Shown here: positions 11,676-62,849 of the stretch, piece by piece | Layout of the letters: every line of letters begins with the position of its first letter | Numbering within the stretch: position 1 is the first letter of the stretch | Source: Alphaproteobacteria bacterium | GTDB taxonomy: Bacteria > Pseudomonadota > Alphaproteobacteria > SP197 | Assembly (NCBI GenBank): GCA_964291265.2 | Contig: OZ219747.1 | Location: forward strand, 1,024,001 to 1,088,000 | DNA length: 64,000 bases | Reading direction: 5' to 3' | The notes under the pieces: generated by a model | Told to the model about the DNA's origin: nothing | The model's database searches: none | What the model saw: only the letters and a program-made list of their open reading frames with translations | Made by a program: the position numbers and the translations under genes

Positions 11676-13274
11676 TCAGCCGTCCTGCCGGCGGAGTTCC
11701 TCGACGCCGAGCTCGTAGACGGCGGGCGGCGCCAGCGTCACCGTGACCTTGAGACGTCTGCGGCGGCTGCCCCGCCAAGCGACGGTGATGCGGTCGATGA
11801 CCTCCTGCAGCGGCCCGGGCGGCGGTGGATCGTCCGGGCGCAAGTCCTGGCCGGCGTGAACCCGGGCGGCGGAGGCGATGCGCGCATGGGCCGTCGCGGC
11901 GATCGCGTCCACCGGCGCCCCGGGCGCGAGGAGGGCGAGGGCGGCGCGGGTCGTGGCGATGCGGCTGGCCAGGGCCTCGATCTCGGCTTCCGGGATCGCG
12001 AGATCGCGGACTGCACGACTGGCGGCGCGGTGGTCCCGTGCCGTGTCCTGCAGCGCGGCGGCGGCTTCCGCCAGGGCGGCGACGGCCCGTTCGACGGCTG
12101 CGAGATCCTCGCTCAGGCGGCCGGCGCGGCGGTGGCGGTCCTCGGCCTCGGCCGAGGCGGCGGCGTGCACGGCCGCCGCGTTGCCGGGCGACGCCAGGCG
12201 GCGGGCCAGGGCCTCGATGACGGCGTCGCGGCGGAACATGCGGCGCTGCCTGCAGGTGCGCGTCGTCCGCCAGGTCTGGCAGACGAGGTAGCCCGAATGG
12301 GCCGTCGTCACCCGGGCGCCGCAGTCGCCGCACCAGAGCCTGCCCGAGGTGATGTAGCGGACGGCCTTGCTCACGGGCGCCGGGCTCCTCTGCGGCGGGC
12401 GGCCCGGGCGCTTCGTCTCGATGATCGCCTGGACCGCGTCCCACTGTTGCGCCGGGACGATCGCCAGTTCCGGGGCCTCGACGATCTGCCACTCGGATTC
12501 GGGTTGCGGGTGGCGCTCGGTGAGGCCCGTCACGGGGTTGCGCACGCTCTTGACACGGCCGAACACGATGCGGCCTCGGTAGATCGGGTTGCGCAGGATG
12601 CCGCGCCCGCGGGACGCCGTGCCGACGAGCGTGGAGGCGTGCCACCGGGACCCCGTGGCCGAGGGAATGCCGTCGGCGTTGAGGTCGCGCGCGACCAGGC
12701 GATACGGCCGGCCCGCCGCGACCTCGGCGAAGATTCGCCGAACGACGGCCGCCTCGGTCTCGTTGATCGTGCGCTGGCCGCCGCTCCCGGGGACCGCGGC
12801 GTAGCCGTACCGCCGGCTGCCCGGGATGCCGCCGCTGGCGACGGCGGCGCGCTGGCCGCGGCGGACCTTGTCGGAGAGGTCCTTGAGATAGAGCGCGTTC
12901 ATGGTCCCCTTGAGACCGATGTGGAGCTCATTGATGAGGCCTTCGGTGACGGACCACATCTGGACCCCATGGTAGCCGAGGCGCTTGTAGATCGTTGCCA
13001 CATCGGCCTGATCCCGGCTTATCCGCGACAGGTCCTCGATGAGCACGACCTCGAAGTCCCGGTACGCCGCCGCCTCGAGGAGCGCCATGATCGCCGGGCG
13101 TTCGAGCATGACGGCGCCGCTGATGCCCTCGTCGGCAAACTCCTCGACGACCGTGGCGTGGTGGCGGCGCGCGACCTCCCTGCATCGGTCGAGCTGGGCA
13201 GGGACAGAGCGGGCCTGCTCGTCCGTCGAGTGGCGCGCATAGAGGGCCACGCGCCTGTCGGCGATGTCGTGCAC
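11676..13274 (-). CDS. Large serine recombinase (resolvase + recombinase + Zn-ribbon + coiled coil); probable island integrase
   Basis: [11 protein letters not shown] (catalytic Ser), [37 protein letters not shown]; GTG start at 13274 after GGAG. Confidence 0.88.
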
Positions 13275-16840: not shown

Positions 16841-16847
16841 GGCGGCG

Positions 16848-22020: not shown

Positions 22021-22050
22021 GGCTCCACACCACTTCACTAAAAGTGAGAA
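22021..22050 (-). promoter_or_regulatory. Candidate oriT nic site
   Basis: Minus strand TCACT-TTT-AGTGA hairpin followed by AGTGGTGT^GG, like the F-type (MOB-F) hairpin-GTGGGGTGT^GG layout; AT-rich intergenic region upstream of the relaxase. Confidence 0.5.
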
Positions 22051-22189: not shown

Positions 22190-25100
22190 GTGGTCGCCAC
22201 CGTCAACGGCATGGCCGCCGCCACCTATTACCTGTCGGCCCAGAAGACGTGGAGGCGGGACGAATCGCGGGATGCAGGTGCATCGACGCTGACGCTGCCC
22301 GGTCTCGAGGACGGCGGCCAGGGCCGCGCCACGGGTGGCGGCAACGGGAGCGGATCCGGCGGACCGCAGTACCATCGAGGAGGCGCGGAGAGTGATGGCG
22401 GGCGGAGGAACCCGCAGGGGATGTCCGGTCTCGAGGGTGGCGGCCGGGGCCGTGCCACGGGCGGCAGCGGTGGGAGCGGATCCGGCGGACCGCAGTACTA
22501 CCAGGGCGGCGAGGAGCCTGATGGCGTGTGGTGGAACCCGCATGGAATGCTCGGTCTCGAGGACCGCGGCCTGGTCGGCGCCAGGGAATTCCGGCGGCTC
22601 TACGCCGGATACGATCCCTCGACCGGCGAGCGCCTCACCCGCAACACCGGATCCGAGGAGCGCTCGCCCGGCCTCGACATGACCTTCAGCGCCGACAAGA
22701 CCGTCTCCGCCCTGTGGGCGATCGCCGACGAGGAGACCCGGGCCGAGATCGAGGCGGCGCACAACGAGGCGGCGCGCAAGGCGCTGGACATGATCGTCGC
22801 CGAGCACTGCGCTTGGACGCGGATCCGGCCGAATGGCCGGGAGGTCATCTTCCGGAGGGCGAAGCTCTGCGGCGCGATGTTCCAGCACGGAACATCGCGT
22901 GACGGTGATCCACAGCTTCACACGCACTGCCTGATCTTCAACGTCACCCAGGCCGACGACGGGGTCTTCCGGTCGCACTACCGGCCTCCCGTCTTCCGCT
23001 GGCAGAAGGCGGCGGGCGCGGTCTACCGCAACGCCCTGGCGGGCGGGCTTCAGGACCGACTCAAGGTGACGATCGAGCGCTACGGCCGTGACGAGGCCTT
23101 CACCCGCATTGCCGGGGTTCCCGCGGAGCTGGTGGCGGAATGGTCGAAGCGGCGGCGGACCATCGCCGACATGGCGGAGTCCCTGGGCTTCGAAACCGCG
23201 GCCAACGCCGCGGCGGCTTCTGGCATCAACAGGGCGACGAGGAAGGCGAAGGTCGACGAGCTGGGCGGCGAACTGCGTCACGCCGCCTGGGCCATCGAGG
23301 CGGCGGCGCACATCGAGAACCGGCAGGAATTCGTCGAGGGTCTCGTCGGCCATGACATGTCGCTCACGGGCGACGACGTCGCCGCGGCCGTCGATCGCGT
23401 GGTGAAGATCCCCGACGACATCACGCGGCACGAAGCGGTGTTCCACCTGCAGGACGTCATCGAGCGGGCGATGAACGCGACCGCGGGAGTCTTCTCGCCG
23501 GGCGTGACGATGGCCACGGTCGACCAGGTGATGAGCGACAGCGATGTCGTCGAGCTGGGCATGCCGCCGGCCTCCCTCGAGGCGGGCGCCGGCATGACCC
23601 ACGCCCGTCTCTTCTCGACCGCCGATCTCATCCGCAAGGAGCGGGAGCTCGGCGCCATGGCCGGCGCCCTGGCGGAGGATCGGAGCCTCGCCATCGAGGC
23701 GGGCGTGATCGAGACGAGGCTCGGCGAACTGCGCCGCGACGGCTATCCGATCTCCGACGAGCAGGCGAAGGCGATCCGTTACGGCGCCGGCGCCGGGAGC
23801 GGCAAGCTGGCGATCATCGAGGGTGCTGCGGGCTCGGGAAAGACGACCACGCTGAGGCCGATCACCGATCTCCTGCAGGAGAAGGGATGCACGGTGATCG
23901 CCACCGCGGTGGCCTGGCGGACCGCGGTGGCGCTGGGCACCGACTGCGGCGTCGCTCCGTTTTCCGTCGATCGCCTGCTGCGCCGTGCGGCACGGGGCGA
24001 GGTCCATCTCGACGACAGGACCGTCATCGTGGTGGATGAAGCCGGGATGCTCTCGGTGCCCCAGGCCTGGCAGCTCCTGCGGCTCGCCAGGGAACACGGA
24101 TGCAAGGTGATCGCCGCCGGCGACACCCACCAGCACCAGCCGATCGGCGCCGGGCCCGGGCTGCGTTTGATGCGCGAAGCGGCGCGTGGCGTGCGGGTCG
24201 ACGAGATCCGCCGCCAGAAGGCGGATGTCGAGGACATCCTTGTCCAGGTCCACGGCCAGGACCCGCAGGACGTGCGCTACGCGCTCGGCATGATGAGCGC
24301 CGAAGAGAAACGGCGGGTCCTCGACGATTACGAGGCGATGCCGATCAGGCCCAAGGTCAAGCCATGGCAGATCGCGGTCTCGGAGGCCTTCCGAGACGGA
24401 AAGGCGGCCGATGCGATCGGTCTTCTCGCCGAGCGGGACCGGTTCGTTCTCGGTCGCGACCTCCAGGCGACGCTGGAGGAACTCGTCAACGACTGGGAGT
24501 GCTGGCGCCTCGAGAACCCGGACGGTGTCGCGACCGTCATCGCCCGCACCCACGACGAGGTGCAGGTGCTCTCCCACCTCATGCGCGAGAAGGTGCTGGC
24601 GAAGGTGGCGGGGTCGGACCGGCGGGTGGTGGTGCGGGCGTGCGGCGCCCGGGCGCAGGGCCGCGAGAAGGATCTCGAGATCGCGTGTGGCGACCTGCTG
24701 CGGATCGGCGCCCTGGTGTGGGAGAAGCGCCTCTTCAACGGCACCGTGGTCGCGGTGAAGGACATCACGGTCCACGACCAGGGGACGGAGGGCGAGAGGG
24801 TCGAGATCCACGCAAGGAGCGAGTACGGCGACGACGTTGCGTTCTTCGTCGACGAGCTGGTCGACTACCACGGCAAGGTGCGGCTCGATCACGGCTACGC
24901 CATGACCATCGCGTCCTCTCAGGGCCGCACCGTCGATGCGGCCTTCGTGCTGGCCGACGACCGGGCGCCGAAGCCGACCATCTACCCGGCGGTGACGCGC
25001 CACAGGGATCACCTGCGGCTCTACGTCAACCGTGCGCCGCTCGCCGAAGCGGTGCGGGAGAAGCGCTCGGAGGACCTGGTCGGCACGCAAGTGAGCGACG

Positions 25101-28075
25101 AGGAGATCGTCGAGCATCTCGCCTCGCGCTGGTCGCGCGCGGGCGCGAAGGAGGCGGCGACGGACTACATCGCGGAAGCGCGGGATCATCACGCCGGCGG
25201 CAAGGGCGGCGCCGCCTGGGTGGCCGCCAACGACAACGAGGGCGGCGGGTTGCGCTCGCTCGCGCGGGCCATCCGGCGGACAACGGACCGCTGGCGCTAC
25301 GGCGCCCGGGTGTCGGCTGTGGCCGGGGAGATACGGGAACTCGAGGACGAGTACCACGACCTGGTCGAGCGGCATGCGGCCGCCGGCGGGGCCGAGGCCG
25401 TACCGCTCGGGGAGTTCGAGGCGATCGCTCGCGCACAGGGCGATGTGGTGCGGCGCATGGCGGCGTTCACCGGACCGCAGGGCCGCTGGCGGACCCTGTG
25501 GCGCGACGCCGGGGACATGGATGTCGCGGAGGCGGAGGCCTTCCGGAACCGGCACCGGGATGTCCGGGACTGGATCACCGGGGCGCGGCGGCGCCAGGCG
25601 AGCCTGGCCGCGGTCGAGGCCCGCGGCGGGCAGGGACAACTGCAACAGGCCGTGGCGGTGCGGGAGACTCGCGCCGGCGGCGAGGGTGAAGAGAGGGGAG
25701 GTGCACAGATGGCCATGTCGCAACGGGTGGCGCGCGAACTGCTGGTGGACAGCTGCCGGGCGCAGATGCAGGACCGCTATCTGTGGGGCGTCGAGGGCCA
25801 GGAGATCCTCGACGACCTGCGGGCGAGATCGTCGGAAGCGCTGGAGCGATGGCCGGGTGACGACGCGGAGGGGCGGGAGGTTGTCGTCACCTACCTCGAC
25901 AGCTACAGCCAGGCGATGACCGCATGGGCGGCGGCGAGAGAGGTGGTCGGCGCGGCCGGGATGCTCGCTGGCGGCAGGGTCGACACGGCGCAGTGGCTGA
26001 TCGGCCTTCTCGACGACATCGACGCCGGTGCGGACGATGTCTGGCATGACACGGCTCTGCGCATCGTGGGCAGCGCCCTCGTCCGGCAGGGGCGTCTGGT
26101 CTCGCCTGTGGCATGGCTGGCCGAGACCAGGGCGGAGGCGGAACGGACGGTGGCGGGCATCCGCCGGGCGGAAGCCGGACCCTCCGTCTCCCGGGGGCGG
26201 GACGACGCCGGGCGGAGCGAAGCCGTGGCGGCGCAGTCAGGCGGTGGCGAGGACAGGAAGATCCTCGATGCGCCGCCGCCTCCACGGCCGGTGGCGGCGC
26301 CTGCCGACGAGGCTCCGGTCCGGCAGCGGCCGTCGCCGCAACCGGCGGCGAGGCCGCGGCGGGAGCGGCTCCCGGACGTCAAGGAACTGGCGGCGCTGCT
26401 GGCCGAGCGGGCCGAGGAATTCTGCAGGGTCTATCTCCCCGCCGGCCGGCGGCGCGGCGAGTACTGGAAGATCGGCGGCGTGGACGGTCACGCCGGCGAA
26501 TCCATGTGGGTTCTCCTGACCGGCCCGAGGGCCGGCGCGTGGCAGGACACGGCGACCGGTCAACACGGCGACCTGGTGCACCTGATCAAGGAGGTCATGC
26601 GGCTTCCCGATATCGCCGCGGCCCTTCCGGAGGCGAGCGCCTTCCTCGGCGGCGCCGGCGTCGTCGCCATGGCGCCGCGGACGGAGCGGCTGGATGCCGG
26701 GGCGGCAGGGAAGGAGGCCGACCGTCATGCCAAGGCGCGCCGGGCCAAGGCGCAGAGGACCTGGGAGAGGTGCCGGCCGCTGCGCCGGGGCGAACGGTCG
26801 CCCGGCGCCCTCTATCTCGTGCGCCGGGAGATCTCCGTCGAGGCGGCCTCCGCCCTGCGGTGGTCGCCGGAGCTGATGACGCAGGACGATACCGGCAGCG
26901 CCGTGATGGCGCCGGCCCTCGTGGCGCGGATCGAGACCGCCGCCGGCGAGTTCCGCGGCGTGCAGCGGATCTTCCTGACCGGTTCCGGCGAGAAGGCGGC
27001 GCTGGGCAAGGGCGGCGCCAAGAAGGCGCAGGGCGACCTCGCCGACGGCGGGGTGTGGTTCGGCAACCGCGAGGCGTCGCGGGTGGTCATGACGGAGGGC
27101 GTCGAGGACGCGCTGGCCGCCATCACGGCGCTGCCGGCGGATGCCCTGGAGCGCGTGGCGGTGGTGGCGAGCACGGGCGCAAACCGACTGCACCGCGTGG
27201 CGCTGCCGCCCTCCACGCGCGAGGTGGTGGTCCTGCAGGATCCGGGGCAGACCGGCGAGGAGACGTTCCGCAGGCTGAAGGCGCAACGCGAGAGCGAGGG
27301 ACTGCAGGTGCGGGCGATCCGGCAGGCCGTGGACGTGAACGATGCGCTCGTCGCCGACCGGGACGCTCTGGCGCGGCTCCTGGCGCCGCTGGCCGAGCCC
27401 GGTTCCGCCGCCGCTCTCAAGGCGCCGCCGGCGGCGGACGACCCGGAGGCTCTCGTGGGGCGCGCCGCCCGCTGGCGCGCTGCGGCCGCGAGCGGCGGGT
27501 GGGCCGCGGCCGACATCCATGCCATGGGCCCCGATCTCGACCAGGCGCGAGATGCCCTCGCCCGGGCGGGTGGACTGACCGACGGCGCGAGGGACACGCT
27601 GGAGGCCTTTGCCGGGGAGGCGGGCCGGGCCCTGGGCGCCATGCGGATGGCGGCGGGACTCGTGGCCGGGGTCGAGGATCTCATGCGGCAGCGCGGCGAC
27701 ATCCTGACGCGGGTCACCGGGGAGCGGCATCCCCGGTCCGCCGAGCGGCGGTTCTTCGCCGAGGTGCGCAATCATCCGCACATGGACGGCTGGACCGAAC
27801 GGGCCGGGAAGGCGCTGCGCGTGATGGCGGACCTGCAGGCCAGCGAGAGGACCGCATGGGGCGCGGCGGTCCTGGATCTGCTGGGCCGGCGCGTGCCGGA
27901 TGCCTCGATGACGACGGCGGACGCGAATGCGCGGTACTATCTGATCAGCCAGGCACGGCGGATCACCGATACCCTGAAGCGCGACGACCGCATGCGGCGC
28001 GCCGGGACCGGCGAAGCGGTCGCCGAGGAGATGAAGGCGGGCCATCGGCGGGCCGTCTCCCGGGGCCTGGCATGA
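22190..28075 (+). CDS. MOB-F (TrwC-like) relaxase-helicase with a C-terminal primase-like/Toprim region
   Basis: YY motifs, GLDMTFSADKTVS, FQHGTSRDGDPQLHTH (HUH), EWSKRR; GAAGSGKTT, VVDEAGM, GDTHQHQPI, HGYAMTIASSQGRTVD; then YLPAGRRRGEYW..GAWQDTATGQHGDL and VMTEGVEDALA. Confidence 0.92.
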   Translation: MVATVNGMAAATYYLSAQKTWRRDESRDAGASTLTLPGLEDGGQGRATGGGNGSGSGGPQYHRGGAESDGGRRNPQGMSGLEGGGRGRATGGSGGSGSGGPQYYQGGEEPDGVWWNPHGMLGLEDRGLVGAREFRRLYAGYDPSTGERLTRNTGSEERSPGLDMTFSADKTVSALWAIADEETRAEIEAAHNEAARKALDMIVAEHCAWTRIRPNGREVIFRRAKLCGAMFQHGTSRDGDPQLHTHCLIFNVTQADDGVFRSHYRPPVFRWQKAAGAVYRNALAGGLQDRLKVTIERYGRDEAFTRIAGVPAELVAEWSKRRRTIADMAESLGFETAANAAAASGINRATRKAKVDELGGELRHAAWAIEAAAHIENRQEFVEGLVGHDMSLTGDDVAAAVDRVVKIPDDITRHEAVFHLQDVIERAMNATAGVFSPGVTMATVDQVMSDSDVVELGMPPASLEAGAGMTHARLFSTADLIRKERELGAMAGALAEDRSLAIEAGVIETRLGELRRDGYPISDEQAKAIRYGAGAGSGKLAIIEGAAGSGKTTTLRPITDLLQEKGCTVIATAVAWRTAVALGTDCGVAPFSVDRLLRRAARGEVHLDDRTVIVVDEAGMLSVPQAWQLLRLAREHGCKVIAAGDTHQHQPIGAGPGLRLMREAARGVRVDEIRRQKADVEDILVQVHGQDPQDVRYALGMMSAEEKRRVLDDYEAMPIRPKVKPWQIAVSEAFRDGKAADAIGLLAERDRFVLGRDLQATLEELVNDWECWRLENPDGVATVIARTHDEVQVLSHLMREKVLAKVAGSDRRVVVRACGARAQGREKDLEIACGDLLRIGALVWEKRLFNGTVVAVKDITVHDQGTEGERVEIHARSEYGDDVAFFVDELVDYHGKVRLDHGYAMTIASSQGRTVDAAFVLADDRAPKPTIYPAVTRHRDHLRLYVNRAPLAEAVREKRSEDLVGTQVSDEEIVEHLASRWSRAGAKEAATDYIAEARDHHAGGKGGAAWVAANDNEGGGLRSLARAIRRTTDRWRYGARVSAVAGEIRELEDEYHDLVERHAAAGGAEAVPLGEFEAIARAQGDVVRRMAAFTGPQGRWRTLWRDAGDMDVAEAEAFRNRHRDVRDWITGARRRQASLAAVEARGGQGQLQQAVAVRETRAGGEGEERGGAQMAMSQRVARELLVDSCRAQMQDRYLWGVEGQEILDDLRARSSEALERWPGDDAEGREVVVTYLDSYSQAMTAWAAAREVVGAAGMLAGGRVDTAQWLIGLLDDIDAGADDVWHDTALRIVGSALVRQGRLVSPVAWLAETRAEAERTVAGIRRAEAGPSVSRGRDDAGRSEAVAAQSGGGEDRKILDAPPPPRPVAAPADEAPVRQRPSPQPAARPRRERLPDVKELAALLAERAEEFCRVYLPAGRRRGEYWKIGGVDGHAGESMWVLLTGPRAGAWQDTATGQHGDLVHLIKEVMRLPDIAAALPEASAFLGGAGVVAMAPRTERLDAGAAGKEADRHAKARRAKAQRTWERCRPLRRGERSPGALYLVRREISVEAASALRWSPELMTQDDTGSAVMAPALVARIETAAGEFRGVQRIFLTGSGEKAALGKGGAKKAQGDLADGGVWFGNREASRVVMTEGVEDALAAITALPADALERVAVVASTGANRLHRVALPPSTREVVVLQDPGQTGEETFRRLKAQRESEGLQVRAIRQAVDVNDALVADRDALARLLAPLAEPGSAAALKAPPAADDPEALVGRAARWRAAAASGGWAAADIHAMGPDLDQARDALARAGGLTDGARDTLEAFAGEAGRALGAMRMAAGLVAGVEDLMRQRGDILTRVTGERHPRSAERRFFAEVRNHPHMDGWTERAGKALRVMADLQASERTAWGAAVLDLLGRRVPDASMTTADANARYYLISQARRITDTLKRDDRMRRAGTGEAVAEEMKAGHRRAVSRGLA
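22299..22570 (+). repeat. 126-bp (42-codon) in-frame tandem duplication in the relaxase N-terminus
   Basis: GGTCTCGAGG recurs at 22301, 22427 and 22553; GSGSGGPQYH versus GSGSGGPQYY. Confidence 0.85.
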
Positions 28076-28100: not shown

Positions 28101-28394
28101 ATGAACGGCTACTACGAGATGAAGAGGGTCGGCCAGGTCAGGGTCGGCACGAAGGTCGAACGGTGGATGGGCGGCGGGCCCCGGGACTGGGGCGAGGTGA
28201 CGAAGCTGCTGCCGGCGGGTGAGGTGGTGGTCTTCTGGGAAGGATCCGCCGACACCCTGATTCACGATGTCGGGGACATCTTCGACATCTGCGTCCGGGA
28301 CTGGTCGGACGAGGTCCGCGCGCTGATCGCCGCGCGGGCGGGTGAAGCGGGCGGCGGCGGGAATGGCATGACGGAACCGGAAGGGGAGACGTGA
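28101..28394 (+). CDS. Hypothetical protein, one SH3/Tudor-like repeat
   Basis: VRVGTKVE..DWGEVTKLLP..V..DWS.EV motif; strong RBS GGAGGAGG. Confidence 0.7.
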   Translation: MNGYYEMKRVGQVRVGTKVERWMGGGPRDWGEVTKLLPAGEVVVFWEGSADTLIHDVGDIFDICVRDWSDEVRALIAARAGEAGGGGNGMTEPEGET

Positions 28395-28395: not shown

Positions 28396-28929
28396 ATGGA
28401 GACGGACCGCGGCGGCAGCGGCGTGCGGATCAGGGTCGGAACGAAGGTCGAGTTGAGAAACGGCGGGCGGGCATGGGGCTGGGGCGAGGTGACGAAGCTG
28501 CTGCCGGCTGGCGAGGTCGGGATCCGGCGCCTCGACGAGGACGAGGCGTATGTGGCGGCCGTCGAGGAGGCTGGCGACGAGGTCTACGTCGACAGCTGGT
28601 CGAGCGAGGTCCGGCGCCTCATGGAGGAACGGTGGAGGCGCCTTGCGGAACCGGCGGAGGTCGATCACTACGATCTCGAGGGCTTCGGGCCGATCAGGGT
28701 CGGCACGAAGCTCGAGGTTCGGGACGGAACCGGGGATGACGGGGAACTGGACTGGGGCGAGGTGACGAAGCTGCTGGCAGACCGGCGGGTGGAGCTCCAC
28801 TGGTACGTCGACCAGGACAGGTTCATCGGCGAGATCGATGACTGCTCCGATCTCTTCGTCGACGACTGGTCGGGCGAGGTCTACGACATCCTCCGCAGAC
28901 AGGCGCGGGCTGGCCATGGCCAGGTCTGA
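28396..28929 (+). CDS. Hypothetical protein, two SH3/Tudor-like repeats
   Basis: IRVGTKVE..WGEVTKLLP..VDSWSSEV and IRVGTKLE..DWGEVTKLLA..VDDWSGEV. Confidence 0.7.
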   Translation: METDRGGSGVRIRVGTKVELRNGGRAWGWGEVTKLLPAGEVGIRRLDEDEAYVAAVEEAGDEVYVDSWSSEVRRLMEERWRRLAEPAEVDHYDLEGFGPIRVGTKLEVRDGTGDDGELDWGEVTKLLADRRVELHWYVDQDRFIGEIDDCSDLFVDDWSGEVYDILRRQARAGHGQV

Positions 28930-30268
28930 CATCCACGCCGAGATCACGGCCGGCATCGTGGAGCAGCTGCGCCAGGGCGTGCGGCCCTGGGTGATGCCCT
29001 GGAGCGATGGCGACAAGCTCGCGCCGGCTGGCGTCGACCTGCCGTTGCGGGACAACGGCAATCCCTACAACGGAGTGAATGTCCTCGCTCTGTGGGCGGC
29101 GGCGGCGGCGCGGGGCTACAAGGCGCCGACCTGGATGACCTTCAACCAGGCGAGGCGGCACGGTGGCCAGGTGAGGAAGGGCGAGACCGGTGAGACGGTT
29201 GTCTATGCGAAGACCTACCCCAAGCGCAAGCGGGACCCCGTGACCGATGAGGAGACGGTGGAGACGGTCGGGTTCCTGAAGCGCTACCGGGTGTTCAACG
29301 TCGAGCAGATCGAGGGTCTCGGCGAGCGCTGGTACCGCTCCCATGCCGAGATCCGACCGCTGAACCCGGACCGGCGAAACGTCGCCCTCGACTCCTTCTT
29401 CGCATCCCTGGGCATCGAAATCCGTCACCACGGGAACAATGCCTTCTATGTCCTCGCCGAGGACCACATCCAGATGCCGCCGTTCGAACTCTTCGACGAC
29501 GCGGCGGCCTACTACGCGACGCTGGCCCATGAATCGATCCACTGGACGCGCCATGCGAGCCGCCTCGACCGCAGGTTCAGGGGCGGCGCCGGCGTGGCCT
29601 ATGCGAAGGAGGAGCTGGTCGCGGAGATCGGCTCCGCCTTCCTCTCGGTCGAGCTCGGTATCGCGCCCACTCTGCGGCAGGACCATGCCGACTACATCGG
29701 CGCCTGGCTCAGGGTTCTCGAGGACGACAGCAAGGCGATCTTCCGCGCCGCCAGTCATGCGAGCAAGGCGGCGGCGTGGATCATGTCGCATGGCGAGGTC
29801 GAGGCCCTGCGCCTCGGCGTGTCCCGTGAGGCGGCGCAAGCTGCGGGCGAGGCCCAGGGCGCGATGCCGGCATGGCCGGATCACGGCGTGCCGGCGGGCG
29901 CCGTGCAAGGCAGTCTCTTTCGCGCCCGCCCCGGGGACATCGCGCGCCTGGCGGCGGCGCGGGAGGCTCGGCGGTTCGTCGTCGACGCGCTTGCGTTCCG
30001 CGATCAGGCGGCGCCGGGTGACGTGGGCGGCGCCTGGCGCGGCGAGGCGGCGCGGCTCCTCGCCGTCGCCGATTCCATCGACCTCGCGGTTCCCGGCGTC
30101 GCCGCCGCCATCGAGGCCGAGGCGGCCGTGGCGGGCGCCGCGCCAGGCGATGCCGTCGGCGCCTGGCGCTTCATCGCGGATTTCCGCGAGGCGACCGAAC
30201 GGCGCCTGCGGATGATCGATCTGACGGAAGGCCGTCAGCAGACCATGGGCGGCGGAGTCCGCCTCTAG
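28916..30268 (+). CDS. ardC: ArdC-family antirestriction protein (ssDNA-binding domain + zincin-like metallopeptidase) with a C-terminal extension
   Basis: ITAGIVEQL..GVRPWVMPW, YNGVNVLALW, WMTFNQA..GGQVRKGE, VFNVEQIEGL, AFY..EDHIQMPP, LAHESIHWT, YAKEELVAEIGSAFL, HADYIGAWL. Confidence 0.92.
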   Translation: MARSDIHAEITAGIVEQLRQGVRPWVMPWSDGDKLAPAGVDLPLRDNGNPYNGVNVLALWAAAAARGYKAPTWMTFNQARRHGGQVRKGETGETVVYAKTYPKRKRDPVTDEETVETVGFLKRYRVFNVEQIEGLGERWYRSHAEIRPLNPDRRNVALDSFFASLGIEIRHHGNNAFYVLAEDHIQMPPFELFDDAAAYYATLAHESIHWTRHASRLDRRFRGGAGVAYAKEELVAEIGSAFLSVELGIAPTLRQDHADYIGAWLRVLEDDSKAIFRAASHASKAAAWIMSHGEVEALRLGVSREAAQAAGEAQGAMPAWPDHGVPAGAVQGSLFRARPGDIARLAAAREARRFVVDALAFRDQAAPGDVGGAWRGEAARLLAVADSIDLAVPGVAAAIEAEAAVAGAAPGDAVGAWRFIADFREATERRLRMIDLTEGRQQTMGGGVRL

Positions 30269-31936
30269 ACGACAGGAGAAGAACCATGGAGAGCATGCGT
30301 GAGTTCAGCGACAGGATCGCGGACACACTGGAATCGGGAGACGCTTGGTGGCGGAGGATCGAGCCGGAGCCGGGACTGCCTATGCGGTTCGACGGGCAGG
30401 CCTTTGACGGGGCCAGCGTCCTCTCGCTGTGGATGACGGGGAACGAGAAGGGGTTCGAGAGGCCCACCTGGCTCGGCTGGGAGCGGATCGACGAGATGGG
30501 TGGACGCCTGAAGGCGGGCGCGACGCCTGGGACGGCATGGCTGCGCGTCCGCAGTCCGCGGCGCCTGTTCGGACTGGTCGGCGGCCGAGAAGACGTCGAG
30601 GTGTGGCAGCCGAGCGAAGTCTGGTGCGTCGACGAGATCGACGGTCTTCCGGACCACCTTTACCGCAGGGCGGAGGAATTCCGCACGCCCGCGCCGGACC
30701 CCGGCGAAGTGCGGCGGGACGACTGGCCCCGGGAAGTCCTCGACGAGGTCCTGTTCGAGTGGGGCGGTCTGCCTGAAGAGCGCTGGGAGGACGCGGTGGG
30801 CAACGCGGCGCGCGTGCTCGTCGGGCGCGGCGATGACGGCGAAGCGCCGGGGTGGATGAGCGGTCTACACAACCTTCGATGGGCGGAGACGGGACTGATG
30901 GCGGAGTTCGGCGCGGCGTTCATTCTGGCGGAGTTCGGCATCACCACCCGCCAACTGGAGCCGTGGGGCTGGCCTGGCTGGGCTGGGGATGTGGTGGTGG
31001 GGATCAGGGGTGACGAGCGAGTGGTGTTCCGGGCGACGGCGGCGGCCGCAGGCGCGGTCGAGTGGTTGCGGTGCCATGCCCCTGGATACAGAGCGTTCGG
31101 GGCCCTGCCCGCGGTGCAAGCGACCTGGGACGGCAGGATGCCGGGGCCGGTGCAGACGGCGGACGAGGTCTTGCGGATGGTCCCCGATCAGATGGCGGCG
31201 TTCCACGCCGTCAGTGACGCTCGGGCGGTGACCTGCGAAGCCCTGGCGGCCCGGCAACAGTCGGTGGTGGCCGGCGGCGACAGTGGTGCGTGGCGGGCCC
31301 ACGCCGACGACCTCGTCCGGAAGGTCGCGCTCCTTGATCTGGACGCTCCCGGGGTGCGCGCGGCCGTCGAGGCCGAGGTGGCGCTGGCTGCCGGGAAGCC
31401 GGACGAGGTCGTCAGCGCCGAGACGTTCGTCGCGGACTTCCGCGAGGCGACCGAACGGCGCCTGCGGATGTTCGATCTGACGGAAGGCCGTCAGCAGACC
31501 ATGGGCGGCGGAGTCCGCCTCTAGACGACAGGAGAAGAACCATGGAGAGCATGCGTGAGTTCAGCGACAGGATCGTGGACGCACTGGAATCGGGAGACAT
31601 TCCGTGGCATGCGGCCGCGGCGGGGATGGGATTGTCGAGGCGGTTCGACGGGCAGGCCTTTGACGGGGCCAGCGTCATCGCGCTGTGGATGACGGGAACC
31701 GAGAAGGGGTTCGAGAGGCCCACCTGGCTCGGCCGGGAGCGGATCGACGAGATGGGCGGACGCCTGAAGGCGGGCGCGACGCCGGGGACGGCATTCCTGC
31801 GCGTCCGCCGTCCGTGCCGCCTGCCCGGACCGGAAGGCGGCTTCGCCACCACCGAGGCATGGCGGCCTCGCGATGTCTGGTGCGTCGACGAGGTCGACGG
31901 TCTTCCGGACCACCTTTACCGGCGGGCGGAGGAGTT
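30171..31936 (+). repeat. Direct repeats with 1256-bp period (about 30171-30680 versus 31427-31936) spanning ardC gene junctions
   Basis: Near-identical ...GAGTCCGCCTCTAGACGACAGGAGAAGAACCATGGAGAGCATGCGTGAG... at both junctions. Confidence 0.88.
30286..31524 (+). CDS. Divergent ArdC paralogue 2, HExxH lost
   Basis: GQAFDGASVLSLW..GFERPTWLG..GGRLKAG..VWCVDEIDGL aligns with the ArdC N-domain; MAEFGAAFIL retained; same C-terminal tail as ardC. Confidence 0.75.
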   Translation: MESMREFSDRIADTLESGDAWWRRIEPEPGLPMRFDGQAFDGASVLSLWMTGNEKGFERPTWLGWERIDEMGGRLKAGATPGTAWLRVRSPRRLFGLVGGREDVEVWQPSEVWCVDEIDGLPDHLYRRAEEFRTPAPDPGEVRRDDWPREVLDEVLFEWGGLPEERWEDAVGNAARVLVGRGDDGEAPGWMSGLHNLRWAETGLMAEFGAAFILAEFGITTRQLEPWGWPGWAGDVVVGIRGDERVVFRATAAAAGAVEWLRCHAPGYRAFGALPAVQATWDGRMPGPVQTADEVLRMVPDQMAAFHAVSDARAVTCEALAARQQSVVAGGDSGAWRAHADDLVRKVALLDLDAPGVRAAVEAEVALAAGKPDEVVSAETFVADFREATERRLRMFDLTEGRQQTMGGGVRL

Positions 31937-32789
31937 TCTCGTGCCGCCGGCCACGGAGGAGGAACTGTGGGATCACGTCGAGCTGGAGGAAGGCTATGGC
32001 TATGAGCGCCTGTACGCCGTGATCAACGAGATCACGGGCGAGGAACGCCGCGGGGCCGCAACGGACATGACGGTGAGGGAGGCGGCGCGGGCCTTCGTTC
32101 GCTGGACCGCCTCACCGGCGCGCATGAACCGCGATGGGGCCGGAGTCGAGGAGAGTCTGGTCGTGGATATCGGCTCCGCGTTCCTGTTGGCGGAGTTCGG
32201 GGTCGTCGATTATCCGGAGGGCAGTGGGTCCTGGCGCACCGAGGAGTGGTGGGGGGCGATGGCGCAAGCGGCGGGTCGAATTCGGGAGGACGATGAGGTC
32301 GTCTTCCGGGCCGGCCAGCATGCGAGCGACGCTGTCGAATGGGTGTGGCACAAATCGCACGGGTACGGGACCTTTTCGGTCCTGGCCTCACGGGGCGCGT
32401 TTGATCCCGAGTACTGGGAGTGGATGGAAGGGGCGGCGGGAGGGCGGTGGTCGCGGCCCGCGCCCTCCCTCCCCGCCGCTGCTCGGCGGATCACGGCGGA
32501 CGCGCTGGATTTCCTGGCTCGGCCGGTGGCTGTTGATGACAACGGTGCGTGGCGGGGCCTGGCCAACCATCTCGTTCGGGAAGTCGCGGGTCTCGATCTG
32601 GATGTCCCCGGGGTGCGCGAGGCCGTCGGGGCCGAGGGGGCGCTGTGGGCCGAGGATGGCGTGGTCTTCAGCGCCGAGACGTTCGTCGCGGATTTCGTCG
32701 AGGGCACGCGTCGGCGGCTGGCGATGGGCGATCTGACGACGCAGCACACGCGGGCGATGAGCCTCGGCGAGTCGGCGCAACGCATCTGA
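31542..32789 (+). CDS. Divergent ArdC paralogue 3, HExxH lost
   Basis: N-terminus near-identical to paralogue 2; AARAFVRWT replaces LAHESIHWT; EESLVVDIGSAFL retained. Confidence 0.75.
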   Translation: MESMREFSDRIVDALESGDIPWHAAAAGMGLSRRFDGQAFDGASVIALWMTGTEKGFERPTWLGRERIDEMGGRLKAGATPGTAFLRVRRPCRLPGPEGGFATTEAWRPRDVWCVDEVDGLPDHLYRRAEEFLVPPATEEELWDHVELEEGYGYERLYAVINEITGEERRGAATDMTVREAARAFVRWTASPARMNRDGAGVEESLVVDIGSAFLLAEFGVVDYPEGSGSWRTEEWWGAMAQAAGRIREDDEVVFRAGQHASDAVEWVWHKSHGYGTFSVLASRGAFDPEYWEWMEGAAGGRWSRPAPSLPAAARRITADALDFLARPVAVDDNGAWRGLANHLVREVAGLDLDVPGVREAVGAEGALWAEDGVVFSAETFVADFVEGTRRRLAMGDLTTQHTRAMSLGESAQRI

Positions 32790-38065: not shown

Positions 38066-38074
38066 CCGAATGGC

Positions 38075-39931: not shown

Positions 39932-39932
39932 C

Positions 39933-56206: not shown

Positions 56207-56794
56207 TCACTCGAAGGTGAAGGTGACGTCGTTGGCGCCGACGCCGTTGTTGCAGGCGGCGCGGATCCCGCCCGGGGTCATCGGCTGGGCGATGGTCGTG
56301 GAGCCGACCGCCACGCCGGCCAGCGCGCTGCTGCCGGCCGCCTGGCCGGCGTAGGGGTCGATCAGCATGGCGCAGTTCTCGTCGTCGAGGTTCTCGAAGA
56401 TGATGACGTACTCGGTGGTGGCGCCGCGGACGCGCACGCGGGCGCCGAAGGGGTGGCGGATCCTCGGGTTGCGGGCGGATTCATCGAGGGCCGATGAGGG
56501 AATGGCGCCGCGGGCGGCGAGATCCAGGACCATGTTCGTCGTGCCGTAGGTGGCGACGCCCTGCCAGATCTGCGAGACGGCGACCGTCAGCGTGGTGAGC
56601 AGGGCCTGGGCGTCGTTGCGCCGCTGGGTCTCGGTGGCCGAGTTGTAGAGCTGCACGGCGCCGATCAGGGTGGCGGCGAAGAGCGCCAGGCCCATCAGCA
56701 CCTGGAAGAGCGAGATGCCGCGGCGCCGCCGGGCGATGAGACGGCGGGCGAAGGCGCGCCGGGTGGTGGCGGGGTGCGGCAGGGTGTCTGTCAT
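56207..56794 (-). CDS. Type IVb prepilin (PilS-like)
   Basis: Long basic leader ending RRRRG|ISLFQVLMGLALF, hydrophobic helix, HPFGARVRV, C-terminal Cys pair, terminal VTFTFE. Confidence 0.82.
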   Translation of the reverse strand: MTDTLPHPATTRRAFARRLIARRRRGISLFQVLMGLALFAATLIGAVQLYNSATETQRRNDAQALLTTLTVAVSQIWQGVATYGTTNMVLDLAARGAIPSSALDESARNPRIRHPFGARVRVRGATTEYVIIFENLDDENCAMLIDPYAGQAAGSSALAGVAVGSTTIAQPMTPGGIRAACNNGVGANDVTFTFE

Positions 56795-56824
56795 GGGATG
56801 GTCTCTCCTTCGGGCGGCGGCTGG

Positions 56825-57883
56825 TCAGATGGCGGTGGGCGCCTTGCTGGCGGCGTCCATGATGCTGAAGAGGGTCTGGATCATGGCGCCGATGATGACC
56901 GTGACGGCGAGCGTGAGGATCATGTTGAGGAGGGCGGCGCGGGCCTTCATCGTCGCCTCGGAACGCAGGACCCAGCGGTCGACGAAGCGGGCGAGCTTGA
57001 TCTCCCACCGGGGTATGTCGTCGAGGGCCGCCACCACCGGGATGAGCGCCGGGTCCGGAAAACCGTGACCCGAGAGCATCATCGCCCGGCCCATGCCGCG
57101 GCCGCTCGCCATGATCGTGCGGATGGTCTCGATGCGGTGACGGGTGTAAGGCGATGTCGCCTTCTCGAGGCGGGCGAAGGTGGCGTCGTTCAGATCGACG
57201 CCGGCGCGCAGGTACTCCAGGAGGACGAAGAGGAAGGCGGAGCCGACGATGGTGCGATAGATGCTGAACGGCGCGATCCGATCCAGGAAGGACCGTCCCG
57301 GCCCCTTCCACCGCAGCAGGACCTGGCGCAGGACGAGGGCGGCGAGGATGGCCGAGCCGATCAGCACGTGCGGGAAGGCGAAGAGCCACAGCGAGACGTC
57401 GCGGAAGACGGCGCCCAGGGGAGGCCAGCGGTCGTCGGGCAGGATCTCCTGGAACACCGGTATGAACCAGCCGCCGGCGCCCCACAGCATGAAGAGCACG
57501 GAGCCGATCAGCAGGGCGGGCAGCGCCAGGGCGGCCGTCACCGCCGCCGTCTGCCGCTGACGCAGATCGGCGACGCGCGCCGCCCCGGCGAAGAGGTGGG
57601 CGGCGTCGACCTCGCCGTAGGCCATGAAGATCATCGCCTCGGAGGCCGGGATCCAGCACGCCACCTCCGCGGCGAAGGCACCGCGCACCAGGGCGTCGCG
57701 CCAGTGGCGGATGATCCACGCCTCCTGGTTCCTGCCCTGGTCCCGCGCCGTCTGGATGGCGACCTCGAGGGCCGCCTCGATCGAGAAGTCGGCGTCGAGG
57801 AGATCGGCGAGAGTGGCGTAGAGGTCGATGCGCGCCCGCCGGCTGAGAAAGGCCCAGCAGAGGAGAGGCTTCCACCAGGTCAC
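56825..57883 (-). CDS. Type IV pilus inner-membrane platform protein (PilR/GspF-like)
   Basis: RIDLYATLADLL, FAAEVACWIPASEAMI, PFSIYR..GSAFL, GHGFPDP; three TM segments. Confidence 0.8.
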   Translation of the reverse strand: MTWWKPLLCWAFLSRRARIDLYATLADLLDADFSIEAALEVAIQTARDQGRNQEAWIIRHWRDALVRGAFAAEVACWIPASEAMIFMAYGEVDAAHLFAGAARVADLRQRQTAAVTAALALPALLIGSVLFMLWGAGGWFIPVFQEILPDDRWPPLGAVFRDVSLWLFAFPHVLIGSAILAALVLRQVLLRWKGPGRSFLDRIAPFSIYRTIVGSAFLFVLLEYLRAGVDLNDATFARLEKATSPYTRHRIETIRTIMASGRGMGRAMMLSGHGFPDPALIPVVAALDDIPRWEIKLARFVDRWVLRSEATMKARAALLNMILTLAVTVIIGAMIQTLFSIMDAASKAPTAI

Positions 57884-58446
57884 AGGCTCTTCCTCCCCGC
57901 ACCGGGCGCGGCGATGCGCCAGGAGCAGGCCTCGCCGGACGGGATCGCGTGGAGGAAGGCGGTGAAGGCCTGGACGGGCGAAAGCCCGAGGCGGCGCGTC
58001 GCCATGGCAAGCCAGGCACCGTCCGCCGCGCCGGCCAGGGCGGCGGCGAAGTCGAGCGCCATGAACGGGTGCGCCGCCGTCATCGCGGGCCACCATGCCG
58101 GGAGACCGATCATTCCCGCCGTGGCGACCACGGCGAGGACGAGGCGGGCGTCGCCGTGCGTGCCGATCGGCACGATGCCGCCGGAGGCGGTGCTGCGGGA
58201 CCGGTGGAAGGCGATGGCGGCCAGGGCGGCGTAGAGGACGGGGATCCGGTACCAGGGCAGGTCTGCCGGCGGGGCGGCGGCGATGGAGACGAGCGCCATG
58301 ATGGCGATCAGGCCGGTCACGAGGAGGGAACGGGCGCCGTGGGCGAGGATGACGGCACGCTCTTCGCGCAGCCTGTCCTTGCCGATGGCCGGGCATGAGG
58401 GCCGGCGGATCGGGCCGAGGAGGGCGAGGAGGAGGAACCAGATCAC
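57880..58446 (-). CDS. Membrane protein with one 'LAHGARSL/HGDAR/DGAW' unit
   Basis: ILAHGARSLLVTGL, PIGTHGDAR, LAGAADGAW; GTGA-coupled on both sides. Confidence 0.65.
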   Translation of the reverse strand: MIWFLLLALLGPIRRPSCPAIGKDRLREERAVILAHGARSLLVTGLIAIMALVSIAAAPPADLPWYRIPVLYAALAAIAFHRSRSTASGGIVPIGTHGDARLVLAVVATAGMIGLPAWWPAMTAAHPFMALDFAAALAGAADGAWLAMATRRLGLSPVQAFTAFLHAIPSGEACSWRIAAPGAGRKSL

Positions 58447-59255
58447 GGCGCGTCCCCGGGGGATGAGGGCGCCGCGATCCGCCAGGTGCTGGCGTCGCGC
58501 TTGAGGGCCGTTCGCAGGAAGGCCAGGAGCGTCTGCGGGAACGTGAGCTTCATGCGGCGCATGGCGGTGGCGGTCCAGGCGCCGTCGGAGAGACCGGCGA
58601 GGCCCGCGGCAAGGAGCAGCAGGAAGAACGGGCCCGGGAGGAGCAACGAGGTCTCGGGCGAGGCGGCGAGGAAACAGAACGCGGCGATGGCGGCGATGAT
58701 GAAGCGCGAATCGCCATGGGTCCCGGGTGGTACGATGCCGCCGCAGGCGACGAGGCGGGACCAGGCGAAGCCGAGGGTGGCGCCGCCGGCCCAGGCGATC
58801 GGCGCATGGCGCCAGGCGAGATCCGCGTCCGGCGCCGCGGCGATGGAGACGAACACCATGACGGCAATCAGCCCGGTGACGAAGAGTGAGCGGGCGCCGT
58901 GGGCGAGAACGAGAGACTGATCGCCGAGTATCCTGTCTTCATCGATCGGCTTGAGGAGAGCGGGTTCGACGGGGTTGCGATCGTCAACGGCAGCGTGACC
59001 GCTGCGGTGGCGCTTGCCAGCCTCGGTGTGGCGCTCGGCAGCGACAACCCCGCTGTCAGGGTGCTCGCTGCGATCCTGTTCGTCACCACCGTCGTTGATT
59101 TTCTGCTCTGGTGGTGCGGTCTGGGCAGCATCGTCGAGTCTTTCACCGGGTGATCCCCGCCCGCTGGCGGCGGGTGCGGTCACGGGCCGGCCACCGGCGA
59201 TGCGCGCCCGGCGGTTGAGAAAGGCCCAGCTGAGGATGGGCTTCCACCAGGTCAC
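58443..59255 (-). CDS. Chimeric membrane protein: duplicated pilR 5' end + one repeat unit
   Basis: Starts VTWWKPILSWAFLNRRARI (compare pilR VTWWKPLLCWAFLSRRARI); ends with VLAHGARSL, PGTHGDSR, LAGLSDGAW. True start uncertain. Confidence 0.5.
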   Translation of the reverse strand: MTWWKPILSWAFLNRRARIAGGRPVTAPAASGRGSPGERLDDAAQTAPPEQKINDGGDEQDRSEHPDSGVVAAERHTEAGKRHRSGHAAVDDRNPVEPALLKPIDEDRILGDQSLVLAHGARSLFVTGLIAVMVFVSIAAAPDADLAWRHAPIAWAGGATLGFAWSRLVACGGIVPPGTHGDSRFIIAAIAAFCFLAASPETSLLLPGPFFLLLLAAGLAGLSDGAWTATAMRRMKLTFPQTLLAFLRTALKRDASTWRIAAPSSPGDAP

Positions 59256-60427
59256 AGGCTCTTCCTCCCCGGGCCGCGGACGCCGGCGATCGCTCCTCGC
59301 AGGAGCGCGACGAGCGCCTGGCGGAAGCCAAGGTCGAGGTGGCGCATGGCCATCGCGAGCCAGGCGCCGTCGGCGATGCCGCACACGACGGAGGCGACCA
59401 GCAGCAGGACGAACGGCAGCGGCGCCAGGCCCAGGGTGAAGGCCTCGGTGGCCGCCGGAATCAGCCAGGCGGGAGGTCCGTCCTCGACCGGCGCGGCAGT
59501 CTCGGCCGCCGACGGCAGCCCGTCGATCAGCTCGTCGACCCGGCCGTCGGGGATCGCGATGAAGAGCGCCATGGCGAGAAGGGCAAACACCACCCGGGAG
59601 TCGCCGTGGGCGCCGATGGGAATGGCGATGTCGGGGCGGCGGCGGCGGGCGAGGAAGGCGACCGCGGCAAACGCCGGCCAGGCGCCGGCGACGAGGAGCC
59701 AGGGCTGATCGATCGGCGGCGCGGCGATGAAGGAGACGGCGCCCATGGTCAGGACCGCCAGGGTGAGGACGAGGGAGCGGGTCCCGTGGGCCATGATGAG
59801 AGACGGGTCCGGGTGGACCTGCTCCAGCGGCGAGGCGAGGGCGGCCGGCGGCGCTGGCGAAGCGGATGGCGCCGGCGCCACCACGATCCGCCAGGAGCAG
59901 GCGCCAGGGAAGCGGACCGCCCGGGCGAACGCGGCGAGGGTGCGGAAGAACGGCAACTGCAGGTGGCGCATGGCCGCGCCGACCCAGGCGCCGTCGGCCA
60001 GGCCGCACAGGGCGGCGGCGATGAAGAGGAGAACGAACGAGGCGCCGGTGAGGATCAGCATCTGGACCGGCACGTCGAGGAGCGCCGGCGGGATGACGAG
60101 ACCCGCCGTGGCGGCGAGGGCGAGGACGAAGCGGGCGTCGCCGTGGGCGCCGAGCGGCACGACGGCGCCGCCGGCCGCCGTGCGGGACCATGTCCAGGCG
60201 AGGCAGGCGAGGCAGCCGTAGATGCCGGCGAGGACGATGCCTGGCAGCGCGGCGGCGGGAGTGTGCCAGGGCGGGTACGCCAGCGGATCGGTTGCCATGG
60301 CGGCCACCGCCATGACAAGAACGAGGCCGGTGACAAGGAGAGATCGGGCGCCGTGGGCGAGGATGAGAGACTGATCGCTGTGTATTCGCTCTTCATCGAG
60401 GCTCTGAGGGATGTCGAGGCGGGTCAC
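59252..60427 (-). CDS. Membrane protein with two repeat units
   Basis: LILAHGARSL/PLGAHGDAR/CGLADGAW, then LIMAHGTRSL/PIGAHGDSR/CGIADGAW; GTGA overlap with the ATPase stop. Confidence 0.68.
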   Translation of the reverse strand: MTRLDIPQSLDEERIHSDQSLILAHGARSLLVTGLVLVMAVAAMATDPLAYPPWHTPAAALPGIVLAGIYGCLACLAWTWSRTAAGGAVVPLGAHGDARFVLALAATAGLVIPPALLDVPVQMLILTGASFVLLFIAAALCGLADGAWVGAAMRHLQLPFFRTLAAFARAVRFPGACSWRIVVAPAPSASPAPPAALASPLEQVHPDPSLIMAHGTRSLVLTLAVLTMGAVSFIAAPPIDQPWLLVAGAWPAFAAVAFLARRRRPDIAIPIGAHGDSRVVFALLAMALFIAIPDGRVDELIDGLPSAAETAAPVEDGPPAWLIPAATEAFTLGLAPLPFVLLLVASVVCGIADGAWLAMAMRHLDLGFRQALVALLRGAIAGVRGPGRKSL

Positions 60428-62031: not shown

Positions 62032-62849
62032 CCGCCGTCCCCGTTGCCGTGGGCGAGCGCCCAGTCGCCGGTCTCCGCGTGGCGCAGGCTCACTCCCGGC
62101 GGCTGCGCGGCGATGCGGATGACCTGCCAGCCGCCCGGCAGGTGATCGCCCTCGCGCACCCACCACACGCGGGCGCCGTCGGTCACCGCGGCGCGCATGT
62201 TCCCCGCCGTCCCCAGCATGGTCGACCAGGCGTAGGGCGGCGCCGGGTCCTCCTCCTCCTCGACCGCCTCCGGTTCGCTCTCCTGCAGGATGGTGGGCAG
62301 GGTCAGCTGCTCGAGGGCCTGGAGAGGAGGCGGCTCCGGGGCGATCACCGGGGATGTGTCGGCGGCCAGCGGCGCGGTGTCGGTCCCGGCCTCGCCGCGG
62401 GCCAGCACCGCCATCTGCAGCTCGGCCTCGAGGAGTGCGCCCACCAGCTGCTGGCGCTCCAGGCACAGGCGCAGCAGTTCGTCCTCCAGGGCCGCCGCCG
62501 CCAGGATGTCGTCCGGGGCCACGGCGGCGGCAAGGCGGGTTCTCAGGAAGTCGATGGCGCAGTCGGCCATCGGCGGGCCTTCCCCGGCGTCCGGGGCCGT
62601 CAGCATGGTGACGATGGCGGCGGTGGCCTCGTCGAGATCCGGCGCCGCCGGTTCCTGCGTCACCGGCTCTTCCTCAGGCTGAGCCGCGCCGATCACCGTC
62701 ACCTCCGCCTCCGCCGGTTCGTCCGGCGGCAACGGCAGGGGCAGCTGCTCCTCGGCGGCCAGCGGCGCGGCGAGGAGGGCGAGGACGAGGACCGCCGGCT
62801 TGATGACGCCCGCGGGCCGGGCGGCGGCATGGATGGCGGCGGCGGTCAC
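62028..62849 (-). CDS. Type IV pilus biogenesis protein, PilP-like
   Basis: Signal peptide, coiled segment, C-terminal beta domain ..G...RAAV......VREGD.LPGGWQVIRI....V; directly upstream of the ATPase as in pilP-pilQ-pilR-pilS operons. Confidence 0.65.
   Translation of the reverse strand: MTAAAIHAAARPAGVIKPAVLVLALLAAPLAAEEQLPLPLPPDEPAEAEVTVIGAAQPEEEPVTQEPAAPDLDEATAAIVTMLTAPDAGEGPPMADCAIDFLRTRLAAAVAPDDILAAAALEDELLRLCLERQQLVGALLEAELQMAVLARGEAGTDTAPLAADTSPVIAPEPPPLQALEQLTLPTILQESEPEAVEEEEDPAPPYAWSTMLGTAGNMRAAVTDGARVWWVREGDHLPGGWQVIRIAAQPPGVSLRHAETGDWALAHGNGDGG

Follow-up and report, generated by a model that had tools for sequence, protein, structure and literature searches.

A 64,000-nucleotide (nt) stretch of an alphaproteobacterial genome (assembly GCA_964291265.2, contig OZ219747.1, forward-strand positions 1,024,001 to 1,088,000; hereafter the window) holds an integrated conjugative element in which three tandem genes of the ArdC family, A1, A2 and A3, follow the relaxase gene and encode proteins that end in a common C-terminal domain (CTD) of ~110 amino acids (aa). 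We put at about one half the probability that this CTD is a portable export tag, akin to the BID and XVIPCD domains, for the type IVB conjugation channel of the element, and the array itself appears to be a recombining set of ArdC paralogues. What is new here is the portable CTD, an old clade of protease-dead ArdC proteins (the dead clade) and the recombining array.

Three tandem ArdC genes with a common C-terminal domain

The relaxase gene, two genes with SH3-like repeats, A1, A2, A3 and a gene for a recombinase-type DNA-binding protein form one operon-like run with intergenic gaps of 25, 1, -14, 17, 17 and 2 nt (Table 1). As the first-pass annotation had claimed from the letters alone, the three array genes have open frames and intact ribosome-binding sites (RBSs), with identical GGAG-type sites before A2 and A3 and a start of A1 that overlaps the upstream gene. 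The ArdC N-domain (ArdcN, PF08401) was likewise correctly called in all three, scoring above the Pfam cut-off in A1, A2 and A3 (E 1.7e-34, 2.3e-8 and 1.5e-9), and the metalloprotease domain (MPTase-PolyVal, PF18818) is strong in A1 alone (E 2.9e-47, against 0.1 in A3 and no match in A2). Only A1 keeps the HExxH active site, as HESIH at residues 205-209, together with the third-ligand Glu within KEELVAE (231-237); both His residues and this Glu are gone from A2 and A3. The ArdC-N squiggle hhsxxQ (PMC6222260) reads VFNVEQ in A1 and VWCVDE in A2 and A3 (Gln to Glu), and the conserved ArdC-N Trp (PTW) is kept in A2 and A3. NCBIfam and PADLOC scans of A1-A3 gave no matches. By domain content A1 is thus assigned to the ArdC family and A2 and A3 are predicted inactive-protease variants of it which, though protease-dead, likely still bind incoming DNA.

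The shared helical C-terminal domain of the first-pass annotation also stands: the CTDs of A1-A3 are 44-55% identical (tblastn E 1e-22 to 3e-5) and are predicted to fold into four helices (predicted local distance difference test score, pLDDT, 87), the model of full-length A2 being too poor for use (pLDDT 49). Searched against Pfam at E<=1, 21 CTD members gave five unrelated weak matches, none of them BID, and a comparison with PDB sequences gave no match except one designed helical protein. The CTD model found no match in Foldseek PDB or among viral models; in VIA it found generic bundles alone (best Z 8.0, root-mean-square deviation 3.9, 89 residues aligned), with BID not among the 50 matches listed. 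Atlas matches, all below 0.9, include a small cluster named TraA at 0.81, which we take as a lead only. No CTD match was found in PLSDB plasmids, and a related-locus search of metagenome contigs and genome contigs, to which the variable CTD alignment was ill suited, gave no relatives.

Table 1. Principal features of the window, with positions counted from its first letter
Feature	Position	Strand	Remarks
A1: ArdC (ArdC-N plus metalloprotease) with CTD	28916..30268	+	450 aa, open frame; HExxH at 29528-29542
A2: protease-dead ArdC with CTD, recombinant	30286..31524	+	412 aa, open; N-half like A3, last ~28 codons 99% like A1
A3: protease-dead ArdC with CTD, array-terminal tail type	31542..32789	+	415 aa, open
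CTD of A1, putative export tag; four helices and a tail predicted	29936..30265	+	
CTD of A2	31183..31521	+	
CTD of A3	32469..32786	+	
104-nt exact repeat, copy 1 (tail, stop, RBS, next start)	30216..30319	+	inside 86% repeat 30091-30680
104-nt exact repeat, copy 2	31472..31575	+	inside 31347-31936
Two genes with three SH3-like repeats	28101-28394, 28396-28929	+	name based on sequence pattern and weak Atlas lead; nothing in Pfam
Recombinase-type DNA-binding (helix-turn-helix) gene, PF07508	32792..33427	+	3' of the array in 4/5 syntenic loci
MOBF relaxase-helicase-primase (TrwC, AAA_30, DUF7146, Toprim_3)	22190..28075	+	
Relaxase linker unit, residues ~1245-1327	25922..26170	+	colinear but weak alignment to CTD
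Conserved motif with short inverted repeat, putative oriT candidate	22026..22048	.	between small divergent gene (21423-21755) and relaxase
Type IV coupling protein of the element, 3' remnant of ~150 codons	50154..50606	-	
Type IV pilus genes (PilS/bundlin, T2SSF, T2SSE, weak PilP)	56207..62849	-	
Large serine recombinase	11676..13274	-	near left end of element; then parA, ribbon-helix-helix gene, ribonucleotide reductase

A terminal and portable module

A profile of 21 CTD sequences, run against 1.84 billion proteins, returned 49 representatives (one of which, P0172, is a repeat-protein false hit), and in 45/49 the match ends no more than 35 aa from the C-terminus, so that in the databases the CTD behaves as a portable module, as the first-pass annotation had anticipated. 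Carriers comprise active ArdC, HExxH-less ArdC and proteins with an unrelated N-domain of ~80 aa: 10 of the 17 representatives of at least 380 aa have HExxH and 7 lack it, and the unrelated N-domain occurs on six of the 49, on one of them twice. Its combination with the CTD is seen at L022:2343-2909, in the L017 15325-15870 region and in P0130, P0135, P0136, P0139 and P0146, P0130 having two CTDs, one of them internal. The same N-domain also stands alone (L022:1995-2327), gave nothing significant in Pfam or PHROGs, and marks a family that is a candidate for further cargo.

Within the family of this bacterium the CTD is present in 8/33 genomes, all in one genus, and it was not found in 400 other genomes of the class, for each of which at most 11 candidates were scored. 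The genome studied here (G000; completeness 100%, 2 contigs) also encodes, outside the window, a resident chromosomal ArdC of 393 aa (C2:2980634-2981815) that lies among housekeeping genes, has no CTD and ends in an SH3-like domain; this protein is a natural control for the element-borne carriers. Its locus is syntenic in 7/7 cases checked, mostly adjoining a 1040-aa gene, and its SH3-like domain is weakly related to the SH3-like repeats of the window (best E 7e-4, for a homologue), whose two genes matched nothing significant in Pfam or PHROGs.

Trees were built from 62 CTDs and from 54 matching N-parts, fragments being left out of both and 8 non-ArdC rows out of the second. On the N-part tree the five protein classes need 4 changes, the minimum, and the 14 proteins without HExxH group as a single clade (SH-aLRT 99, quick method). 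On the CTD tree, which has 110 columns, six classes need 9 changes, the active A1-type proteins at least 6, and approximately unbiased (AU) tests, both chosen after the tree was seen, rejected a CTD clade of the 14 dead proteins (p-AU 3e-41) and one of the 8 non-ArdC carriers (p-AU 2.6e-4). Since the dead proteins are one clade by N-part and not by CTD, the CTD has been swapped; the protease was likely lost in a single ancient event, after which CTDs moved among protein classes.

An old clade of protease-dead proteins

HExxH is missing from all 14 dead-clade proteins and the ArdC-N signatures are kept in every one; a profile of eight of them aligns to the solved ArdC of plasmid R388 (6SNA) across both domains, remnant helices included (E 1e-23). 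By the NG86 method, whose figures are inflated by high GC content at third codon positions (GC3) and whose dS is distorted by conversion, dN/dS is 0.36 (0.26-0.47) on the dead branch of the related genome G013, 0.38 for A1 orthologues and 0.80 (bootstrap 0.62-1.05) for A2 against A3. A3 and its variant in a second sample of the same study (sequencing run X2) are separated by 17 nonsynonymous and 9 synonymous changes (pN/pS 0.63). Both A2 and A3 are free of stops, whereas ~4.5 would be expected from neutral change at 0.2 per site (P(0) 0.005-0.01). As judged from these comparisons, the dead clade is old and maintained, not junk, and A2 and A3 change fast, through either relaxation or diversification. 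In 3/3 loci that have a dead copy, it lies directly 3' of the active one.

Recombination within the array

In run X1, which is possibly from the source sample, contigs match the unique parts of the array with 0 differences and break at its repeats, which rules out an assembly artefact; a 138-nt junction contig in this run has a depth of 111 against 63-67, depths that are not read as copy numbers. The identical tail of A1 and A2 highlighted by the first-pass annotation is real, and it is encoded within a 104-nt exact DNA repeat, embedded in a 592-nt repeat of 86% identity, that spans the stop, the RBS and the next start. The identity is therefore a product of recent recombination, and we rejected it as a sign of selection or of an export signal. 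Along sliding windows, the likeness of A2 to A3 is 71-96% in the N-domain and 41-60% in the middle, and the last window of A2 is 99% like A1. Tail type tracks array position, six database orthologues of the dead copy sharing the A3-type end; the active protein P0006 also has this end, as would be expected from a collapsed array.

In run X2, one contig joins the A3 body to the internal tail (32685 to 30174), and a second has 673 letters of the A2 middle swapped for 691 others before continuing into the terminal tail; the sides of these joints are 47-56 letters at a minimum likeness of 90, a level at which related strains are not separable, and the lacking cover of the A2 middle in X2 was not counted as evidence. 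The number of dead copies among five syntenic loci is 2 in this genome, 1 in G013 and G005, and 0 in G009 and G019. This variation and the rearranged X2 joints support the accordion-like expansion and recombination at homologous junctions that the first-pass annotation had proposed.

Elsewhere in the genome (C2:1808649-1808688) an intergenic 40-nt segment behind an RTX-like gene is a 95% copy of the A1/A2 tail DNA. It stops at the stop codon, precisely where likeness to a paralogous flank (C2:759023-759314) starts, and is possibly a rearrangement scar.

The element and its transfer machinery

In G013 the CTD genes adjoin genes for a coupling protein, DotA/TraY (E 1e-70) and a TraQ-like protein (below cut-off), in a region that also encodes a 988-aa VirB4-like ATPase (weak match), and by gene content this set is assigned to a type IVB, IncI-like system. 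DotA/TraY occurs in 9/33 genomes of the family, including 6/7 of the other CTD-positive genomes, and in each of G009, G005 and G019 a stretch of ~30 kb on a single contig encompasses DotA, coupling protein and relaxase-ArdC locus, with family labels taken from the G013 genes. The elements of the relatives accordingly look like a family of type IVB integrative and conjugative elements.

The oriT-candidate motif is conserved in four relaxase upstream regions (0/100 shuffles) and presumably resembles F-type nic regions. The array lies behind the relaxase, away from this candidate, which likely places it in the lagging region. Relatives keep genes for ribonucleotide reductase, nucleoside deoxyribosyltransferase and a staphylococcal-type nuclease (14495-20931) on what is likely the leading side. 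The window also holds a RepC-like gene, a nuclease and restriction-modification-like genes, and its defence-like cargo at 34979-47825 comprises a helicase-nuclease, an HATPase with C5 methylase, DUF5131 and a type IIG-like restriction-methylase. At ~50600 the coupling-protein gene breaks off; next to the break are a small gene that is duplicated, a Toprim gene and an IS21-like element (51198-54932).

As to the relaxase, 126-nt tandem repeats in its 5' region (22287-22586) encode a Gly-rich insert with repeated Tyr motifs, seven further places in the genome match the relaxase domain region of P0004 (E under 1e-12), and G005 has a second, truncated relaxase gene beside the full-length one.

Does the CTD act as an export tag?

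If the CTD is an export tag, the array would be co-expressed with the relaxase in the donor, the coupling protein would recognise the CTD and its short basic/hydrophobic end, and the tagged proteins would enter the recipient together with the T-strand through the type IVB channel, there to shield the incoming DNA by binding ssDNA. In the least supported step, the freed, fast-changing middle of the dead copies might bind defence proteins of the recipient. We favour this reading because the CTD is terminal, portable across unrelated proteins and swapped, because in relatives the CTD genes sit with a DotA/TraY system and the resident ArdC has no CTD, and because the array is in the likely lagging position, a region from which an anti-CRISPR expressed after entry is reported to have worked poorly (PMC11541004). 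Precedents exist in the relaxase-derived BID tag of VbhT (PMC5675462) and in the export of SogL by the IncI1 system (PMC8406263).

Two further features argue for an export tag: shared C-terminal ends and a colinear alignment with the relaxase linker. An end of the form [RS][LMFIW] is found in 45/68 carriers (66%) against 3.6% of 928 genome genes, and in 21/38 representatives. Linker and CTD align across ~80 columns, and when an alignment of nine relaxases was divided into 49 windows, the three that scored best overlapped the linker unit. A first-copy linker profile searched against 65,316 sequences, 70 of them CTD proteins, placed 7 CTD proteins in the top 24 non-self rows. The relaxase of G019 (L024:12398-18055), which is without the C-terminal domain of its relatives, has a tandem duplicate of the linker unit (E 0.001); when this second copy, hand-picked for its CTD-like look, was added to the profile, hhalign gave 61% and 8 CTD proteins ranked above all background of the 65,316 sequences. 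The CTD-like stretch that the first-pass annotation saw in the linker thus exists, starting at residue 1303, with a similarity that is borderline, and by sequence comparison homology between linker and CTD is probable but unproven. The relaxase's C-terminal region was rejected as a CTD homologue (hhalign 0.2%).

Several observations weigh against an export tag. With first copies only, the linker comparison gives an hhalign probability of 7% and a score of 20.7, less than the highest scores from shuffles (23.3 and 23.5), and with the first-copy profile every CTD protein stays short of E<1. The tail-motif counts are not independent, the carriers being related, and gene conversion by itself could have swapped CTDs between tandem neighbours. 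Contrary to what the first-pass annotation had supposed, the tails are not rich in Arg, the net charge of the last 20 aa being +1 (A1), +1 (A2) and 0 (A3), with a mean of +0.9 over carriers, and we rejected an Arg-rich signal on these values; two of the four arginines in what we take to be the Arg-motif spacing are present. Three relatives (G002, G008 and G012) are DotA-positive yet without a CTD match. Searches of this genome found neither an intact coupling protein nor DotA nor VirB4 (no match to TIGR04346, PF03135, PF10412 or TrwB, and no tblastn match to the DotA or 988-aa ATPase of G013), the sole trace being a coupling-protein remnant of 154 aa; the export machinery of this copy appears lost, and without a coupling protein or DotA the array is therefore probably stranded unless a helper element arrives. 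R388 ArdC is reported to have helped when expressed in the recipient, not in the donor (PMC7213743).

Among other explanations, a dimerisation or scaffold role, in which the CTD would join active ArdC, dead ArdC as pseudo-enzyme partners and non-ArdC proteins, with conversion keeping the CTDs of one element compatible, is in our estimate somewhat unlikely. It would suit a generic helical bundle, CTDs that group across N-terminal classes, dead copies placed directly behind active ones and the doubled CTD of P0130, and it leaves unexplained the terminal position of the domain, the shared end motif, the CTD-free resident ArdC and the weak link to the relaxase linker. It is improbable that A2 and A3 are simply recent duplicates drifting under relaxed selection after loss of the transfer machinery, the third copy being an accident of unequal crossover. 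The truncated coupling protein, the long CTD branches of A2 and A3 (0.47 and 0.54), the pN/pS of A3 against its X2 variant and an A2-A3 dN/dS above that of the G013 dead branch and of A1 orthologues would all follow from such drift; set against it are the absence of stops where several are expected, the 18-letter difference in the X2 middle replacement, a multiple of 3, the age and conservation of the dead clade as a whole, and the biases of NG86 already noted.

An explanation without export has little chance of being right: the proteins would act after expression in the recipient, or in the host by protecting the excised or replicating element, and the CTD would bind some other partner. R388 ArdC binds ssDNA and is needed in the recipient, its export being neither required nor excluded according to PMC7213743; anti-defence genes are reported from lagging regions as well (PMC11541004), and the element has its own restriction-modification-like genes downstream. 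Such a role fits poorly with an array in the likely lagging position behind the relaxase, with an R388 ArdC of 297 aa that has no CTD, and with a CTD found mostly in genomes that have a type IVB system. A bolder form of the export-tag reading strikes us as unlikely. In it the CTD would be a new relaxase-derived secretion-signal domain of type IVB systems, shuffled among co-injected proteins, and dead ArdC would be a recombining variable cassette, its ssDNA-binding front and its export tag conserved, its pseudo-protease middle hypervariable and driven to diversify by selection against the defence proteins of recipients.

Relation to known systems and implications

ArdC of the IncW plasmids R388 and pSa (PDB 6I89, 6SNA; PMC7213743) has the same architecture of ArdC-N plus gluzincin metalloprotease, of which A1 keeps HExxH and squiggle and the dead-clade profile matches both domains. 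What differs here is a further ~150 aa bearing the CTD, the tandem arrangement of paralogues, the existence of a protease-dead clade, an array behind the relaxase and not in the leading region, and an integrated element with type IVB relatives. The E229A variant of R388 ArdC is reported to keep full antirestriction activity, so the protease is not needed (PMC7213743) and the decoy role suggested by the first-pass annotation as a reason for protease loss is unsupported. ArdC-N joined to active or inactive peptidases is described from conjugative elements (PMC5512222, PMC6222260); co-transferred ArdC-N proteins and inactive peptidase partners being known, the array is not the wholly undescribed system for which the first-pass annotation had named it a candidate. 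Compared with polyvalent proteins, RP4 TraC1 and IncI1 SogL, as reported in PMC5512222, PMC6222260 and PMC8406263, it consists of separate tandem genes with a common terminal module instead of a single chain of many domains, primase and relaxase are one fusion protein, and the CTD matches no Pfam family.

In the BID domains of VbhT, Beps and rhizobial relaxases, as described in PMC5675462 and PMC10025392, a C-terminal domain and a short tail on cargo encoded beside the relaxase likewise recur. The CTD differs in lacking a sequence match and in a tail that is not positively charged, BID was not listed in the fold searches, the system is type IVB, and a copy possibly shared with the relaxase, present there once or, in G019, twice, is remote and not near-identical. 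The XVIPCD of Xanthomonas type IV secretion effectors, treated together with other signal types in PMC10025392, is alike in being a ~120-aa C-terminal domain on different cargo proteins; again the CTD has no sequence match to it, its cargo would protect DNA and not act as a toxin, and its binding to the coupling protein is putative. By analogy, co-transfer of the VbhT/BID or TraC1/Sog kind is the most likely mode of action of the array, without membership of the BID family. No literature on such an array or domain was found in a search that left most subscription journals outside, and the supplementary domain files of PMC5512222 could list the CTD under another name.

The scope of the finding is narrow, one genus. 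Little is known about the way in which conjugation systems of the IncI/type IVB kind select the proteins they export, and the 110-aa CTD marks candidate cargo in such a system, pointing to further possible substrates such as the ~80-aa family outside ArdC. In the old protease-dead clade, nature offers a counterpart to the E229A result. Travel of ArdC along with the DNA has been proposed for pSa and is not required for R388; the CTD makes both this matter and that of cargo choice testable.

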